A stretch of DNA of 64,000 nucleotides from the NCBI GenBank assembly GCA_017409455.1, contig JAFQSS010000011.1, positions 29,595 to 93,594 on the forward strand, given 5' to 3'. The position numbers and the translations under genes were made by a program. The notes beneath the pieces were generated by a model. The model worked only from the letters and a program-made list of their open reading frames with translations, was not told where the DNA came from and did not search any database. The stretch comes from Clostridia bacterium (GTDB lineage Bacteria > Bacillota > Clostridia > TANB77 > CAG-508). Within the stretch, counting starts at the first letter, position 1; each line of letters begins with the position of its first letter. This document shows positions 1 to 57,922 of the stretch, piece after piece.

Positions 1-66
1 CAAGGTATTGAAGTTTCAGAAGAACAAAAAGAAAATTTATCTAATTCAGGTGTTGTGCTTAATTAA
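1..66 (+). CDS. 3' end of an unidentified CDS entering from upstream of the window
   Basis: Open frame from base 1 to TAA at 64-66 (..QGIEVSEEQKENLSNSGVVLN*), followed by an imperfect hairpin plus T-run at about 73-105. Confidence 0.3.
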   Translation, partial: QGIEVSEEQKENLSNSGVVLN

Positions 67-34415: not shown

Positions 34416-34766
34416 GGGGATGTAATGGTTTCGACATTACATTTGAAGCATGAATAGCGAGTAGTGGATTCTCGTTAGCCACTATAAAAACGGGAAATTT
34501 AAATATAAACGCTGATAATAGAGAATTAGCATTTGCTGCTTAGTTGCGGCAACGCCTGTTAAAATATCCCCACATATTTTAATTTGGTGTCATTTAGTGG
34601 GAAACAAAGCTGTTTGTTCTACGAAAACAGTGGGTATTTAGTAGATATATTTGATAGTCGTTTGTTTATTAATGATTATTAAATGAATTTTAATAATAAA
34701 CTGCACTCGGAGAAGTTTGTGTGAATTGTGTTATGGACAGGAGTTCGACTCTCCTCATCTCCACCA
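34416..34766 (+). ncRNA. ssrA: tmRNA (SsrA)
   Basis: 5' GGGGATGTAATGGTTTCGAC..; 3' GGAGTTCGACTCTCCTCATCTCCACCA; tag ORF gct gat aat aga gaa tta gca ttt gct gct tag (ADNRELAFAA if translation resumes at GCU); TTGCAA-17-TATAAT upstream. Confidence 0.9.
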
Positions 34767-34773
34767 AATTTTA

Positions 34774-34810
34774 AAAAACCAGCATTTCGCTGGTTTTCTT
34801 TTATTTTCTC
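34774..34810 (+). repeat. 37-bp direct repeat, copy 1 (contains the tmRNA terminator hairpin)
   Basis: aaaaaccagcatttcgctggttttcttttattttctc, identical at 37396..37432. Confidence 0.9.
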
Positions 34811-34892
34811 TCATAGTTGTCATTTCAAGGGTTTTCAAACTTTCTAAAAATTTGCATTTCTTTCATATTTTCTCATTTTTTGTTACTTTCTG

Positions 34893-34924
34893 TTTTCTAC
34901 TGCACACCTAATTGCACACTTTTT
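34893..34924 (+). repeat. Direct repeat R2, copy 1 (two TGCACAC half-sites)
   Basis: ttttctactgcacacctaattgcacactttt; copy 2 at 35822..35851 differs by a 1-nt deletion. Confidence 0.8.
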
Positions 34925-35125
34925 TCTTCCTTATTTTTCCATTTAAATCTTATCTCTTCAACCATTTTATAAAAAAATACAAAATAAAAAATGATATAAA
35001 TTTATAAATTCACTTGTAAATTAGTTGAATTTATAGTATAGTTTAATGTAGGGAATAAGAATAATTGCAGATGTGGTTGCCACTTTTAATCCACAGCTTT
35101 ATGTTGTGAGAATGGAGGTGGTGCT

Positions 35126-35236
35126 ATGATAGAAGCTATTTTATTAGAGATAATATATTTACTTTTATTTGCATTAGTTGTCGAAACTATTATAGTATTT
35201 GCCTTAATTATATTCATCGTATTTTTAAGCAAATAG
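35126..35236 (+). CDS. 36-aa hydrophobic peptide, candidate type I toxin (module 1)
   Basis: SD ggaggtgg 5 nt before the ATG; MIEAILLEIIYLLLFALVVETIIVFALIIFIVFLSK*; TTGTAA-17-TATAGT at 35014-35042; terminator 35242-35282. Confidence 0.55.
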   Translation: MIEAILLEIIYLLLFALVVETIIVFALIIFIVFLSK

Positions 35237-35237
35237 A

Positions 35238-35323
35238 CAATAAAAAACACATCTGTACTTTGCTGGTCTGATGTGTTTTTTATACATATTCACGGCAACC
35301 ACGTTTGTGGTTACTTATTTCCT
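35238..35323 (-). ncRNA. Candidate antisense antitoxin sRNA (module 1)
   Basis: TTGACA-17-TATAAT on the minus strand (35353-35358 / 35330-35335); hairpin taaccacaaacgtggtt; ends at the bidirectional terminator shared with the toxin mRNA. Confidence 0.5.
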
Positions 35324-35384
35324 ACTATTATTATACTTAATTTTCTCAACTTTGTCAAATATTTTTTAGATATATATGATATAA

Positions 35385-35721
35385 TTACTTATGTATTAAT
35401 TGTAAAATTTTATCTTTACATTTGAATATTATAAAAATTACAATATTTATTATTAAACATGTGATTAATTCTAAAGACTCTATTTCTAATTCAAATTTAA
35501 ATATTTTCAAAATAACTGATATAATTAATCCAATAAAACAAAACGCAAACAAGTTACTATATTTAAAATTTTGTTTTGCACACGTTTTTAATATAAATTT
35601 TGCCAATACAATTGATGCAATATTAAGTATCATCCAAAATAAATATCCATCTAATCCGTATTTCCAATATACCTTTTATAAAAATTGCTGTATTTTCTAT
35701 AAACCATCTAATACTTCTCAT
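35385..35721 (-). pseudogene. Small membrane protein gene split by a +1 frameshift
   Basis: SD ggaggg + ATG at 35721 gives 32 codons (MRSIRWFIENTAIFIKGILEIRIRWIFILDDT*). This overlaps the 82-aa ORF 35385..35633 in another frame. Confidence 0.35.
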
Positions 35722-35821
35722 AATTTTCCCTCCTATTTTCTATTATAATATAAATTACATAAAAATACTATAATTTTTGTCTTAAAATTAGTCTTTTGTA
35801 TACTCTTATTTTTCCACATAT

Positions 35822-35851
35822 TTTTCTACTGCACACCAATTGCACACTTTT
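35822..35851 (+). repeat. Direct repeat R2, copy 2
   Basis: ttttctactgcacaccaattgcacactttt. Confidence 0.8.
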
Positions 35852-36284
35852 ACAAAAATGTAATTTTCACCCCCTTGTAATATCAAGCCTTTCAAAAGTT
35901 CCTTTTGGTCCATCTCCACCAATAAAGAATCTGTTCGAACTACAGATACAAAAATCAATCAGTAAAATGGTTGATTTTTTTGTTTGTAAAAAATCATATT
36001 CTATGTTAGTGTGTATTGCCTCGCTGCCCACCTGAGTTTTGATATGCAATGTCAAAACTCATAGGAGGTTAGGACTTATGACAGAGTCAAAGTCCTATAC
36101 TAAAAGACATTGATGAACAAGTAGCATTGTATTTGTTTAATCTTATATAAAATCTCACAAATACGTTGAAAATCAGGCAAAAAAGTGATATAATTGCCAA
36201 GCAAGAACATTTTGTAATACCTTTGAAAGTATTAAAAACTATTCGGAGGTATGAACCTCCGAATGATTATGAGGAGGAAATAAA

Positions 36285-36530
36285 ATGGAAACGGTAAAGT
36301 TAATTGAACCGACTTATGGAAGAATGGTTACCTTGCAGGTACTCAAAGAAGAACCCCTTCTTCATATGATTATCGGCATCTTAACTGCTGTAGCAGACGA
36401 AGAAAAAATTAAATCTAAGGTGTCTGGTAACACAGTCACTCTTACTTTTTCTGACGTTGCCTCTGCAGATGCTTACAAAGCGGCATTTAGGCTTAACCAG
36501 AAAAAAAGTCTTAAAGGAGAAAAGAAATAA
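36285..36530 (+). CDS. Hypothetical 81-aa protein (higher-GC cassette A)
   Basis: TTGAAA-17-TATAAT at 36166-36194; 10-bp 5'UTR hairpin 36241-36264; SD gaggagg; terminator 36827-36856 after ~300 nt of frame-broken sequence. Confidence 0.55.
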   Translation: METVKLIEPTYGRMVTLQVLKEEPLLHMIIGILTAVADEEKIKSKVSGNTVTLTFSDVASADAYKAAFRLNQKKSLKGEKK

Positions 36531-36922
36531 AAAATTCAAGGTAGGAAAATTAATCATTGCTAAAAAGATTAAATATTTAGCTGAGCTGACCCAAAAAGGT
36601 TATATAAAGAAAGGGGACTATTTTTGAAAACACATTCCAGAATACTAAGAGGCTATAACAATAACAAATTCTGTAATCGGTCTGATGAAAGAAATACAGC
36701 TCCCAGTGCAAGAAGGTGCAAGACTAATCGGAAGAAGAATATAGAATCCACGTTCTCGAAACCTTCTCTATATGCGCTTCCACCGGTATACAGTTCTAAA
36801 AAGAAGTGATAAGTTTTAAGACTTTACAAAAGGCACGGAAAATTTCCGTGCCTTTTGCTTAAAAAATATGGTATTCAAAAATTTTATTTGACATTTCCTA
36901 ATTATCTGTGTATAATAGATAT

Positions 36923-37020
36923 AGGAAATGAATAACCGCAGTGAATGCGGTTACCACTACATAAAAGTATAACAACACATTCGCAATATTGGCATACTGG
37001 AATGTGTTGTTATTTTTATT
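36923..37020 (+). ncRNA. Candidate antisense antitoxin sRNA (module 2)
   Basis: TTGACA-17-TATAAT at 36888-36916; hairpin taaccgcagtgaatgcggtta; terminator aacaacacattc..gaatgtgttgtt + T-run; 5' part homologous to the module 1 sRNA. Confidence 0.5.
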
Positions 37021-37129
37021 CCTTATCTATAATTGAATTTACATATTTTATGTATAAAATCGTTAATAAGGTTACGTTTATTGTTGCTAATACCATTAAG
37101 GCATATATTAAAAAAAGTATAAAACTCAT
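37016..37129 (-). CDS. 37-aa hydrophobic peptide, candidate type I toxin (module 2)
   Basis: SD gaggtggtg; MSFILFLIYALMVLATINVTLLTILYIKYVNSIIDKE*; TTGATT-17-TATACT at 37216-37244 on the minus strand. Confidence 0.5.
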   Translation of the reverse strand: MSFILFLIYALMVLATINVTLLTILYIKYVNSIIDKE

Positions 37130-37395
37130 AAACACCACCTCACTTTCTGATAACAAAAGTTATCGAGTGCAGTGGCAATACATATCTACTACTATGTTCA
37201 TTTCCTATGTCAGCTAGTATAACATACAATTTACAATAAATCAATATAAAACAAACGAGTTTTTGTATTTTGATAAAATTACTAAATTTTCATTAAAAAA
37301 TTTGGTAATTTATATATAAATTGATTGATATTTGTATCAATCGTTATGAGAGCCAAAAAAGTTGTAGATAACTACTTCGACGGCACCACTATAGT

Positions 37396-37432
37396 AAAAA
37401 CCAGCATTTCGCTGGTTTTCTTTTATTTTCTC
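37396..37432 (+). repeat. 37-bp direct repeat, copy 2
   Basis: Identical to 34774..34810. Confidence 0.9.
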
Positions 37433-37817
37433 GTACAATCCTTGTATCAAAAAGGTTTCGGCTTTTCTTCAAATTTTATTTTTCTCAATTTGTAAGAGAT
37501 ACTATTATTTTTTATTTTACTTATATCTATATATTATCAATTTATTATTTTCATATTTTTCTTATATCCTATCTCCTTCTAATGCATTTATAATATTATT
37601 ATTTTTATCAAAACCTTTATATATTATACAAAAATATTTTTTTAATATTTCATATACGAAATAAGTTTTTTTATATATAAAAATCTAATTTTGATAATAT
37701 TTGTACTATACTATTGTAGTATTATTTGTTTAAGGCAAATACATCTGCAAAAAGAAATTTCTTTTTGCGTGTGTATATAACACAAAGAGCTCCATCAACA
37801 GAAAGTGAGGCTACTTT

Positions 37818-38270
37818 ATGAAACGCTTTTTTACATTACTTATGGCATTGTGCCTTTGTGTAATCTCTCCTCTGACCGCTTTCGCCGCTGAGGTTGAAAC
37901 ACTCCCTGCCGCCGAAACACTTTACGTTCAGAACGAAATTACACCCGCATCTGCCAGAGCATTGACCTACAACCAGGTATGGATTGATGCTGGTAAGTAT
38001 TCCAATGGTTCTTTTACTGTTGAGAATCCCCACACTTTTATTTTCACAACTACCAATGGTACTTTGAAGATTGAATCCAACAATCCTAACGCTCAGGTCC
38101 ACATTGTCGTTCATGATGGCATCAATGTCATCCTCAACCGTACTCTTGGTCCTGGCGATGGTGAAGTGTATTTTTCCTCTCAGAGTAACTCTGCTCAATA
38201 CGCTGTGAGTTACTTTGTCTACAGTACCAACAACACCAATGGTATCAGAGTGAATTGTTGGCTGTATTAA
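37818..38270 (+). CDS. Secreted hypothetical protein (higher-GC cassette B)
   Basis: Signal peptide MKRFFTLLMALCLCVISPLTAFA|AE; SD agtgagg; terminator 38330-38358. Confidence 0.6.
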   Translation: MKRFFTLLMALCLCVISPLTAFAAEVETLPAAETLYVQNEITPASARALTYNQVWIDAGKYSNGSFTVENPHTFIFTTTNGTLKIESNNPNAQVHIVVHDGINVILNRTLGPGDGEVYFSSQSNSAQYAVSYFVYSTNNTNGIRVNCWLY

Positions 38271-56633: not shown

Positions 56634-56936
56634 ATGTATAAACATCTGTGTCTCCCGTTTGTCAATGGCCAATCTGATATTGAGAAATTACCAAAATTTC
56701 TTGCGCATATTGGGTTTCGGCCACTGAGCACCGCAACTCCTGACAATTTTCCCGCAGGCGCTCTCGTTGTTTTGTACAATAGCCAAACTTTCACTTTTGA
56801 TACTGTTCTTGTTAACGGTTTGAGCAATGGTATCTTATTTTACTCCCATCAATGTGGCCGTAGCTCCGAGAGTTGGTGCAATACATTTTCTAGAGACAAT
56901 GGCTATGATAATTATCTTTTTAAGGTAATCTCGTAA
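56634..56936 (+). CDS. Hypothetical 100-aa protein (higher-GC cassette F)
   Basis: TTGACA-17-TAAAAT 56575-56603; AGGAGG 8 nt before the ATG. Confidence 0.6.
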   Translation: MYKHLCLPFVNGQSDIEKLPKFLAHIGFRPLSTATPDNFPAGALVVLYNSQTFTFDTVLVNGLSNGILFYSHQCGRSSESWCNTFSRDNGYDNYLFKVIS

Positions 56937-56946
56937 ACAGTAAAAA

Positions 56947-56985
56947 GGGCATCACACTAGTTTATAGTGTTGATGCTCTTTTTTT
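56947..56985. terminator. Terminator of cassette F; also placed to terminate fba (bidirectional)
   Basis: gggcatcacacta-gttta-tagtgttgatgctc-ttttttt, with an A-tract on the other side. Confidence 0.75.
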
Positions 56986-56989
56986 ATTT

Positions 56990-57922
56990 CTATGCTTTAT
57001 TTGATGAACCAAATACATTTTTTATTTTATGTGCAACTGTTTCTTTTACTAAATCTCTAGCTGGTGTTAAATATTTTCTTGGGTCAAAAGCACTTGGATC
57101 TTCTGCAAATACTTTTCTAATTCCTGCTGTCATAGCAAGTCTTAAATCTGTATCTACATTTATTTTAGAAACTCCTGATATACTTGCTTCGTGTAATATT
57201 TCATCCGGAACGCCTTTTGCTCCTGGAATATTTCCTCCAAATTGATTGCATGTATCAACTAATTCTGGTATTACTGTTGATGCACCATGTAATACAATTG
57301 GTGTGTTTGGAATTCTCTCTTTAATTTCTTTTAAAATATCAAATCTTAATTTAGCTTCCCCTTTAAATTTGTAAGCTCCATGGCTTGTTCCAATAGCTAT
57401 TGCTAATGAATCAACACCTGTTCTTCTAACAAATTCTTCAGCTTGCGCTGGATCTGTATATTTAGCTTCATCTGCTGCCACATTAACATCATCTTCTATT
57501 CCAGCTAATTTTCCCAATTCTGCTTCAACTACTACACCATGAGCATGCGCATAATCTACTACTTCTTTTGTTAATCTGATATTTTCTTCAAAATCATATT
57601 TTGAACCATCAAACATTACTGATGTAAATCCTGCATCCACACATTTTTTACAAGTTTCAAAATCTGGGCCATGGTCTAAATGTATGGCAATTGGAACATT
57701 TGGATGTTCCTCTACTGCTGCTTCTATCATTTTCATTAAATAATTAATTCTTGCATATTTTATTGCACTTGATGATGCTTGTAATATTACAGGAGAATTA
57801 TTTTCTGCAGCTGCATCTACTATTCCTTGGATTAATTCCATATTATTTACATTAAATGCACCTATTGCAAAACCTTCTCTCATTGATTTTTCAAACATTT
57901 CTTTTGTCGTTACTAATGACAT
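56990..57922 (-). CDS. fba: Class II fructose-1,6-bisphosphate aldolase
   Basis: AIGAFNVNN..PVILQ..HLDHG..LHGAS. Confidence 0.95.
   Translation of the reverse strand: MSLVTTKEMFEKSMREGFAIGAFNVNNMELIQGIVDAAAENNSPVILQASSSAIKYARINYLMKMIEAAVEEHPNVPIAIHLDHGPDFETCKKCVDAGFTSVMFDGSKYDFEENIRLTKEVVDYAHAHGVVVEAELGKLAGIEDDVNVAADEAKYTDPAQAEEFVRRTGVDSLAIAIGTSHGAYKFKGEAKLRFDILKEIKERIPNTPIVLHGASTVIPELVDTCNQFGGNIPGAKGVPDEILHEASISGVSKINVDTDLRLAMTAGIRKVFAEDPSAFDPRKYLTPARDLVKETVAHKIKNVFGSSNKA

Follow-up and report, generated by a model that had tools for sequence, protein, structure and literature searches.

Background

In the par locus of the Enterococcus faecalis plasmid pAD1 (Fst / RNA I - RNA II), the direct repeats DRa and DRb make the 5' regions of the two RNAs complementary, which provides a second contact between them (PMC7472228). 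For the SprA systems of Staphylococcus aureus, the 5' domain of the antitoxin RNA demonstrably binds the ribosome binding site of the toxin, and the 3' overlap is nearly dispensable (PMC6393315). Many toxin-antitoxin (TA) systems of type I in Clostridioides difficile and Bacillus subtilis reside in prophages or in elements resembling them, occur in several copies and are believed to keep these regions stable; in Clostridia, such systems are so far experimentally known from C. difficile only (PMC6563280). Here we describe two paralogous modules located directly downstream of ssrA in a stretch of 64,000 nucleotides (nt) from Clostridia bacterium (assembly GCA_017409455.1, contig JAFQSS010000011.1, positions 29,595 to 93,594; hereafter the window). 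Each module combines a gene for a small hydrophobic peptide with a convergent gene for an antisense RNA, and judging from their sequences each is probably a type I TA cassette of a previously undescribed family.

Results

The two modules

Each module holds the generic elements of a predicted type I TA locus, namely a hydrophobic open reading frame (ORF) of less than 60 amino acids (aa) with a Shine-Dalgarno (SD) sequence and a promoter, and the gene of a complementary RNA, hereafter the antisense or small RNA (sRNA), with its own promoter. Their anatomy, conservation, RNA structures and complementarity were established by sequence analysis, and the coordinates are collected in Table 1. In an initial annotation of the window, both promoters, the SD, a 36-aa ORF and a shared terminator had been assigned to module 1, and the same layout, inverted, with both promoters and a 37-aa ORF, to module 2; all were found again at the same positions. 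Its core reading also holds beyond the window: about 200 modules have kept the ORF, both promoters, an SD-sequestering leader and a structured antisense RNA, and show compensatory changes. Because these homologous modules elsewhere keep every element, the features seen in the window are not due to chance.

The homology already proposed between the two sRNAs and between the two toxin leaders was borne out by an alignment of modules 1 and 2 over their full length, in which the common blocks are the 5' ends of both RNAs, TTGCCACT, GAGGTGGTG, the terminator and the sRNA promoter. In the 64 kb, exactly two copies are recovered by a covariance model of the antisense RNA, at 80 and 71 bits, the next match being at 33 bits. 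The two antisense promoters are the sole 12/12 promoter matches in the 3.6 kb scanned. The shared terminators are omitted by a simple terminator scan because their apical regions span 13-21 nt. Two candidates were rejected: a weak covariance-model match at 56892-57025, which is a mere bidirectional terminator between convergent genes, and an upstream TTG start giving a 46-aa version of the module 2 ORF, since the SD would fall inside the extension and the spacing of the ATG is ideal.

Family survey

Homologues were searched with a leader-block pattern (TTGCCACT-N25-35-GAGGTGGTG), on IMG/VR prophage contigs first; with an ATG added, this pattern was applied to metagenomes and to a set holding one genome for each GTDB species, for which the counts are lower bounds. 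The scan yielded three true modules in the IMG/VR prophage contigs, between endolysin and serine recombinase genes, at least 97 among the 120 metagenome loci listed and at least 98 among the 119 genome loci listed. The family totals at least 201 modules and at least 144 distinct peptides; its hosts are at least 98 species-level genomes of very low-GC gut Clostridia, plus prophage contigs. Early viral scans with the sRNA 5' motif TAGGAAATRARTAACC, which is too specific, gave chance matches only, and a blastn search of the whole island against the phage collection returned nothing useful.

For 80 of the 119 genome records, the labels are almost all uncultured Clostridia, Clostridium, Clostridiales, Eubacteriales or Lachnospiraceae metagenome-assembled genomes (Clostridium sp. 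CAG:567 included), from human, rabbit, sheep, goat and chicken gut, with one exception in a Bacteroidaceae-labelled bin (L314). GC content ranges from 21 to 35%, with a mean (27.7%) equal to that of the window. A transfer RNA (tRNA) or transfer-messenger RNA (tmRNA) gene lies within 300 nt of 34 of 199 modules (13 tmRNA, 10 tRNA-Leu) and within 1 kb of 48, for a background density at the same loci of 0.064 such genes per kb. On prophage contigs the cassette is found at the lysis/recombinase end (lysis-lysogeny junctions), and further copies are solitary insertions between housekeeping genes or adjoin a DDE transposase. More than one copy per genome was found in the window, CANAQC01 and CAZAZX01, and second copies are present in L281, L371, L376, L377 and L381. 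Some modules have a premature stop in the toxin ORF next to an intact antisense gene and promoter (L376, 5950-6040 region; L221; L267). A divergent module (L381, 4463-4900) has a longer leader, a 57-nt spacer and a 38-aa peptide (MVETALLVIIKLLFYELVGITIINFALLIIICFLLHRQ); besides UUGCCACC, this leader carries a second, perfect anti-SD, CCUCCAC, and may form two alternative SD-sequestering structures.

Peptide genes

Four length classes of peptides were distinguished: A (36 aa, module 1), B (37 aa, module 2), C (33 aa) and D (34 aa), which are bridged in the peptide alignment by intermediates and by a common core, TINVALL / TIIVFAL. Class A is represented elsewhere by 35 distinct peptides of identical length, with a ratio of non-synonymous to synonymous polymorphism (pN/pS) of 0.40, and class B by 63 distinct peptides (pN/pS 0.60), of which the few database copies are unnamed. 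Conservation is not confined to the RNA hairpins: although nucleotide sequences diverge by 20-30%, about 96% of modules, across the peptide variants counted above, retain the reading frame, the start codon and the length class, and a strong SD is placed 5-6 nt 5' of the ATG.

Neither window peptide matches Pfam or NCBIfam. When 43 diverse members were compared with Pfam, PHROGs and NCBIfam, no significant match was obtained, and the comparison with toxin families suggested in the initial annotation (Fst, Ldr, TxpA, BsrG), extended to Hok and holin-like toxin models, gave no match among these 43; the sub-threshold PHROG matches include the holin family phrog_920 (E 0.6, 2 of 43 peptides). The exact window peptides are absent from a collection of 15 billion proteins because the ORFs are not called as genes. 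A word-indexed search of 5.8 billion proteins, with the 46-aa TTG-extended frame as query, returned 23 clusters, none of them named, and a hidden Markov model (HMM) search of 1.84 billion representatives returned only 32 clusters, the ten matches at the weakest end all belonging to the same peptide family, several as over-extended gene calls. The peptide family is therefore essentially unannotated.

Promoters

An antisense promoter, TTGAC[AT]-16..18-TAnnnT followed by AGGAAA on the opposite strand, was found in 176 of 184 complete modules, and is a perfect TTGACA-17-TATAAT in 101 of them. Among the eight exceptions, three were lost by rearrangement and most of the other five keep the -10 box. 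The toxin promoter, TTGnnn-17-TATA[CG]T followed after 5-7 nt by RTAGGAAAT, was recognised in 127 of 155 distinct upstream regions and is nearly always sub-consensus, about 2 of these 127 reaching 11 of 12 positions. This asymmetry between a strong antisense and a weak toxin promoter, predicted from the motifs, is as expected for type I TA loci.

Structure of the antisense RNA and of the toxin leader

The covariance model was built from 49 representatives and finds 106 distinct copies in 100 sources. In its alignment 94% of cells are paired, and sliding the partner lowers pairing to 36-53%; double-sided changes are found in 16 of 18 pairs, namely in all 7 pairs of hairpin 1 and in 9 of the 11 terminator pairs, and none of 500 shuffles reaches any of five measures. 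The model itself shaped this alignment; an unfitted MAFFT alignment gave the terminator result too. RNAalifold on the MAFFT alignment recovered the terminator alone because hairpin 1 was misaligned between classes, which the covariance-model realignment solved. In the folds of both window sRNAs, a hairpin comes after the 5' tail and is joined by a linker to the terminator, with z-scores of -5.25 (module 1) and -4.66 (module 2). The unpaired first 12 nt, AUAG(G/A)AAAUGA, are almost invariant, and the segment following hairpin 1, UU(G/A)CCA(C), is single-stranded. With Rfam, only the tmRNA and one tRNA reach the gathering threshold in the window, and nothing relevant was found at E <= 10 in 34770-37500.

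The toxin leader is about 75 nt long, and its segment GCCACUUU pairs with the SD GGAGGUGGU around an inner hairpin that shows compensatory changes in 6 of 7 pairs (unfitted MAFFT alignment). For module 1 the minimum free energy (MFE) fold pairs GCCACUUUU with GGAGGUGGU (z -2.57), and the SD is also paired in the module 2 fold (z -2.37). Out of 119 distinct leaders folded, about 30 representatives covering all four classes were inspected, and the MFE fold of every one of these pairs (U)GCCACUUU(U/AC) with (GUG/GG)AGGUGGU. Five modules came via the sRNA model only and are therefore free of the bias of a search pattern that includes SD and anti-SD; they keep the pairing, with changes that are consistent on both strands, as GCCACC:GGGUGG and UUACCUUU:GGAGGU.

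Possible contacts between the two RNAs

Both predicted RNAs end in one bidirectional terminator, so that their 3' parts are perfectly complementary; the overlap, which takes in the toxin stop codon, measures about 44 nt for module 1 and about 54 nt for module 2. The apical loops of these terminators are unusually large (13-21 nt) and carry a conserved CAA(A/G) on the sRNA strand, that is YUUG on the toxin strand, where this motif is present in 72% of terminator loops versus 22% of shuffled loops. Large YUUG loops are compatible with a loop-loop start of pairing as in par.

Two further contacts had been proposed in the initial annotation and were not upheld. In the first, the sRNA segment GUAACCAC would pair with GUGGUUGC of the toxin leader; in the sRNA itself this segment makes up the 5' arm of the covarying hairpin, and the pairing is not conserved: classes A and D allow it, class C does so with a bulge, and it is missing in class B, which includes module 2 and has AACCGC in the sRNA and AUGUAUUGCC in the messenger RNA (mRNA). 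In the second, ACCAC of the sRNA would pair with the SD. For a 5' contact of either kind, RNAduplex energies of the first 46-48 nt of the sRNA with the entire leader or with the initiation region do not surpass those of shuffles (z -0.2 to -0.8). A conserved 5-bp match, UU(G/A)CC:GGUGG, is possible, and its energy does not exceed that of shuffles either.

The inverted duplication noticed earlier between the promoter-proximal arms of module 1 proved to be a property of the whole family: the 5' regions of both RNAs are inverted repeats, the first 45 nt or so of the sRNA being an inverted copy of the toxin leader. The sRNA therefore bears the same anti-SD motif as the leader. Both RNAs carry the same 5' dodecamer AUAGGAAAUGA(G/A) and the same GUGGUU(U)GCCAC segment, and in almost every module the dodecamer, (A/G)UAGGAAAUGA(G/A), opens the toxin mRNA as well as the antisense RNA. 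Within a module the UU versus UUU indel agrees between the two leaders, rare 5' variants of one leader recur in the other, and leader identity is higher for cognate (11.8/14) than for non-cognate pairs (10.9/14; permutation p < 0.0002). The cognate likeness reflects concerted evolution or a shared constraint. The dodecamer might act as a 5' stabiliser, serve as a site for a nuclease or for the ribosome, be an operator that overlaps +1, or have arisen by gene conversion; if a nuclease, the ribosome or a regulator recognised it in both RNAs, it might couple their fates. We tentatively consider that the antitoxin RNA could be an inverted paralogue, or mimic, of the toxin leader, acting as a trans copy of the cis anti-SD that is tethered via the terminator, a reading we hold with limited confidence. 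Such leader-mimic logic would differ from the complementary direct repeats of par and from a plain antisense overlap.

Table 1. Features of the two modules and of the ssrA region in the window
Feature	Position	Strand	Basis or remark
Module 1 toxin promoter, TTGTAA-17-TATAGT	35014..35042	+	Weak, non-consensus
Module 1 toxin mRNA leader	35048..35125	+	5' end GUAGGGAAUAAG
Module 1 anti-SD, UUGCCACUUUU	35077-35087	+	Within leader
Module 1 leader inner hairpin	35092-35108	+	
Module 1 SD, GGAGGTGGTG	35114-35123	+	GGAGGUGGUG in leader
Module 1 peptide ORF, 36 aa, class A	35126..35236	+	MIEAILLEIIYLLLFALVVETIIVFALIIFIVFLSK
Module 1 shared bidirectional terminator	35242..35281	both	Folding, covariation; abuts toxin stop codon
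Module 1 antisense RNA, ~87-92 nt	35234..35325	-	Covariance-model match 71 bits, E 3e-10; 5' tail, hairpin 35296-35315, UUGCCG linker, terminator
Module 1 antisense RNA promoter, TTGACA-17-TATAAT	35330..35358	-	Perfect
Module 2 antisense RNA promoter, TTGACA-17-TATAAT	36888..36916	+	Perfect
Module 2 antisense RNA, ~96-100 nt	36921..37021	+	Covariance-model match 80 bits, E 1e-11; 5' AUAGGAAAUGAA, hairpin 36933-36953, CCACU 36954-36958, terminator 36970-37012
Module 2 peptide ORF, 37 aa, class B	37016..37129	-	MSFILFLIYALMVLATINVTLLTILYIKYVNSIIDKE
Module 2 SD, GAGGUGGUG	37141-37133	-	
Module 2 leader inner hairpin	37164-37149	-	
Module 2 anti-SD, UUGCCACU	37178-37171	-	
Module 2 toxin mRNA leader	37130..37209	-	5' AUAGGAAAUGAAC from ~37208
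Module 2 toxin promoter, TTGATT-17-TATACT with TG extension	37216..37244	-	Commonest family type, 27 upstream regions
Dodecamer, module 1 toxin mRNA	35048-35060	+	
Dodecamer, module 1 antisense RNA	35325-35313	-	
Dodecamer, module 2 antisense RNA	36921-36932	+	
Dodecamer, module 2 toxin mRNA	37208-37197	-	
tmRNA gene ssrA	34416..34766	+	ARAGORN; Rfam RF00023, 150 bits
37-bp exact direct repeat, left copy (ssrA terminator and downstream sequence)	34774..34810	+	
Degenerate ssrA 3' end (..CCATCTCCACCA), closes islet 1 (module 1)	35895..35921	+	Alignment
Second degenerate ssrA 3' end (..TTCGACGGCACCA), closes islet 2 (81-aa ORF and module 2)	37363..37390	+	Alignment
37-bp direct repeat, right copy	37396..37432	+	

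Genomic setting in the window

The island with both modules lies directly downstream of ssrA, which is its integration site, and the 37-bp direct repeats bracket the 2.6 kb that contain them. Two degenerate ssrA 3' ends split this insert into two islets with one module each, and each of these tandem decayed islets ends in such a degenerate 3' end plus a terminator. No integrase or phage gene is left inside the 2.6-kb insert. The region 34416-37432 looks like the result of serial integration at the tmRNA gene followed by decay, in which the TA-like cassettes and a few small ORFs survive. On contig L004, the 81-aa ORF and module 2 are found 3' of a phage Amidase_2 endolysin gene and 5' of the same pseudo-ssrA end as in the window.

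Other elements of the region were recorded separately. One conserved expression leader is fused to unrelated small ORFs (window 36166-36530; L004 2200-2569 and 3490-3730). In this leader a promoter (TTGAAA-17-TGnTATAAT) is followed, after some 60 nt, by a perfect hairpin TTCGGAGGTATGA(A/G)CCTCCGAA that includes GGAGG and its complement, and then by the SD. It precedes the 81-aa ORF in both the window and L004, and in L004 also a 40-aa peptide (MIWAVLVSSIVSEAIAAFVAYKKGYKDGYKRGSYGTIDLC) with a hydrophobic N-terminus and a K/Y/G-rich tail; leader plus small ORF appear to form a modular moron cassette. Pfam gave no match for the 81-aa protein, which belongs to a cluster of 5 members only. Upstream of the 81-aa cassette are two adjacent conserved hairpins, GAGTTTTGATATGCAATGTCAAAACTC and AGGACTTATGACAGAGTCAAAGTCCT (window 35990-36100; L004 1925-2030), without Rfam match. 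Between module 1 and the first pseudo-ssrA end lies a very hydrophobic 82-aa ORF (35385-35633, minus strand), which is absent from the protein collection and has sub-threshold profile matches only. Just beyond the island, a 150-aa protein with a signal peptide (37818-38270, plus strand) belongs to a 90% cluster without any other member and has no Pfam match on record.

Discussion

Proposed function

In the mechanism that we infer, which extends to toxicity, RNA half-lives, a kissing start of pairing, its outcome in decay or translation and a role in stabilisation, a weak sigma-A-type promoter would produce an mRNA of about 235-245 nt for a single-helix membrane peptide of 33-38 residues. In its leader, (U)UGCCACUUU would pair with the SD GGAGGUGGU around a small hairpin, and the primary toxin transcript would therefore be poorly translatable. 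The near-consensus convergent promoter would give an abundant RNA of about 90-100 nt starting at AUAGGAAAU, with a single-stranded 5' AUAGGAAAUGA, followed by one hairpin, an unpaired UU(G/A)CCA(C) and, last, the terminator. Pairing probably begins by loop-loop contact at the terminators, as in par, and would then trigger duplex-dependent decay or hold the mRNA in a complex that is inactive; the sRNA's leader-like part, which bears the same anti-SD motif, may also clamp the ribosome binding site in trans. If the locus were lost, the labile sRNA would vanish and the peptide would be made, which would favour the retention of the prophage ends and tRNA/tmRNA islands that hold many copies.

Several observations weigh against a TA function. 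The hosts are uncultured. A Lys/Arg-rich or strongly charged C-terminal tail is typical of characterised Gram-positive type I toxins; the present peptides have none, their tails being NKE, SK or IDKE, and the hydrophobic stretch of class A holds three Glu. The pN/pS values of the family (0.40-0.74) indicate moderate constraint only. Both strands of the helix between SD and anti-SD were fixed by the search pattern, so that in the main set this helix is invariant and uninformative on covariation, and the trans contact at the ribosome binding site is statistically unsupported. Three of 184 modules (L230, L286, L363) have an intact ORF and have lost the sRNA promoter, a loss that one would not expect if the toxin were potent, unless there is cross-protection by another copy. 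Many copies stand alone between housekeeping genes and are not obviously borne by mobile elements.

Some of these points would be accounted for if the product were an antisense-regulated membrane peptide rather than an addiction toxin, with another accessory role for the mobile element (superinfection exclusion, abortive infection, holin/antiholin-like lysis timing or membrane regulation) and a level tuned by the sRNA. The prophage cassette adjoins endolysin and recombinase genes, a classical moron/lysis region, the charged tail of known type I toxins is missing, two peptides have the sub-threshold holin match, and many chromosomal copies have no mobile element to stabilise. We consider this rather unlikely: the PHROG matches are not significant, and a very strong constitutive antisense promoter facing a weak sense promoter, a locked leader, several copies per genome and, in the window, persistence in decayed islets without phage genes form in combination a specific signature of type I TA loci and not of holins, which are co-transcribed with lysis genes. 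Both functions are also compatible with one another, as a type I TA can act in abortive infection.

It is very improbable that the loci are purely non-coding, that is, pairs of convergent structured RNAs regulating each other or their neighbours around an ORF that is untranslated and open by accident, owing to AT-rich sequence with hydrophobic codons. Such a view could draw on the most conserved stretches being RNA elements (5' dodecamer, anti-SD, SD, terminator), on pN/pS values that are not very low and on gene callers, which almost never call the ORF. Against it, at least 144 peptides keep frame, length class, start, an ideally spaced SD and hydrophobicity, and the common core bridges all classes; an open frame of 111 nt would decay fast in AT-rich DNA, and an SD-sequestering structure makes sense only for a translated ORF. 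Chance matches, or functionless passive remnants of att sites and terminators next to ssrA, would suit an AT-rich region (27.7% GC) that is a decayed island and whose promoter-like matches are overall not above shuffles (28 vs 23.8 +/- 4.7), and are refuted by about 200 copies in at least 98 species-level genomes and unrelated contexts, with all elements and compensatory changes.

We retain the type I TA interpretation as probable for a family that is invisible to gene callers, Pfam, NCBIfam, PHROGs and Rfam, with more than 200 loci from human and animal gut. The covariance model and the peptide profile are ready for use in annotation, and the cassette is a marker for prophage ends and tRNA/tmRNA islands in these genomes. 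The modules form a natural series of cognate RNA pairs with compensatory variation, suited to studying target recognition by 3'-overlapping antitoxins, and a leader-mimic antitoxin is possibly a new regulatory logic. If toxic, the peptides would be candidate counter-selection tools for genetically intractable gut anaerobes. Full-text literature searches with the peptide motifs, and on type I TA systems of Clostridia and ssrA islands, returned no description of the family; most subscription journals and databases such as T1TAdb were outside their scope, and an earlier mention is possible.

Comparison with known systems

The C. difficile pairs CD2517.1-RCd8, CD0956.2-RCd10 and CD0977.1-RCd11 and the B. 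subtilis pairs txpA/RatA and bsrG/SR4 are convergent and overlap at their 3' ends, as do the present modules (PMC6563280). They differ by toxins of 34-59 aa with a Lys-rich or charged C-terminus and by longer overlaps, and the C. difficile loci also by sigma-B promoters and an association with CRISPR. No sequence similarity to these systems was found, the C-termini of the present family being NKE, IDKE or SK.

SprA1/SprA1AS and SprA2/SprA2AS are likewise convergent genes with a 3' overlap and paralogous copies in islands, and here too a non-overlapping 5' domain of the antitoxin could reach the ribosome binding site of the toxin (PMC6393315). Unlike in SprA, only the 5-bp UU(G/A)CC:GGUGG match is conserved here, without statistical support, and there is no similarity of peptide or RNA (no Rfam match at E <= 10 and no protein-family match).

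The initial annotation had equated the architecture with par. This held for the convergent promoters and the shared bidirectional intrinsic terminator, and for an intramolecular stem-loop that sequesters the SD, analogous in function and unrelated in sequence (PMC7472228); it did not hold for the DRa/DRb complementarity and the Fst motif. The likeness to par extends to a peptide of about 33 aa with one hydrophobic helix, to a toxin mRNA of about 235-245 nt, and to a frequent location on mobile elements as well as in chromosomes (PMC7472228). In contrast to par, DRa/DRb are absent and the 5' parts are inverted repeats, so that the two RNAs are identical there and not complementary; no significant 5' duplex is predicted, and the antisense RNA exceeds that of par in length and folds a 5' hairpin of its own. 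In the peptide alignment there is neither a PXXXG motif nor a long charged tail, and the 43 peptides have no Pfam or NCBIfam match, Fst and Ldr models included. As far as sequence analysis goes, the data support a large, well-delimited new family within a known kind of system, whose distinctive feature is the shared leader, with a near-invariant 5' dodecamer and an antitoxin copy of the anti-SD. On the best reading, the family works like par/Fst or SprA1 but belongs to neither.

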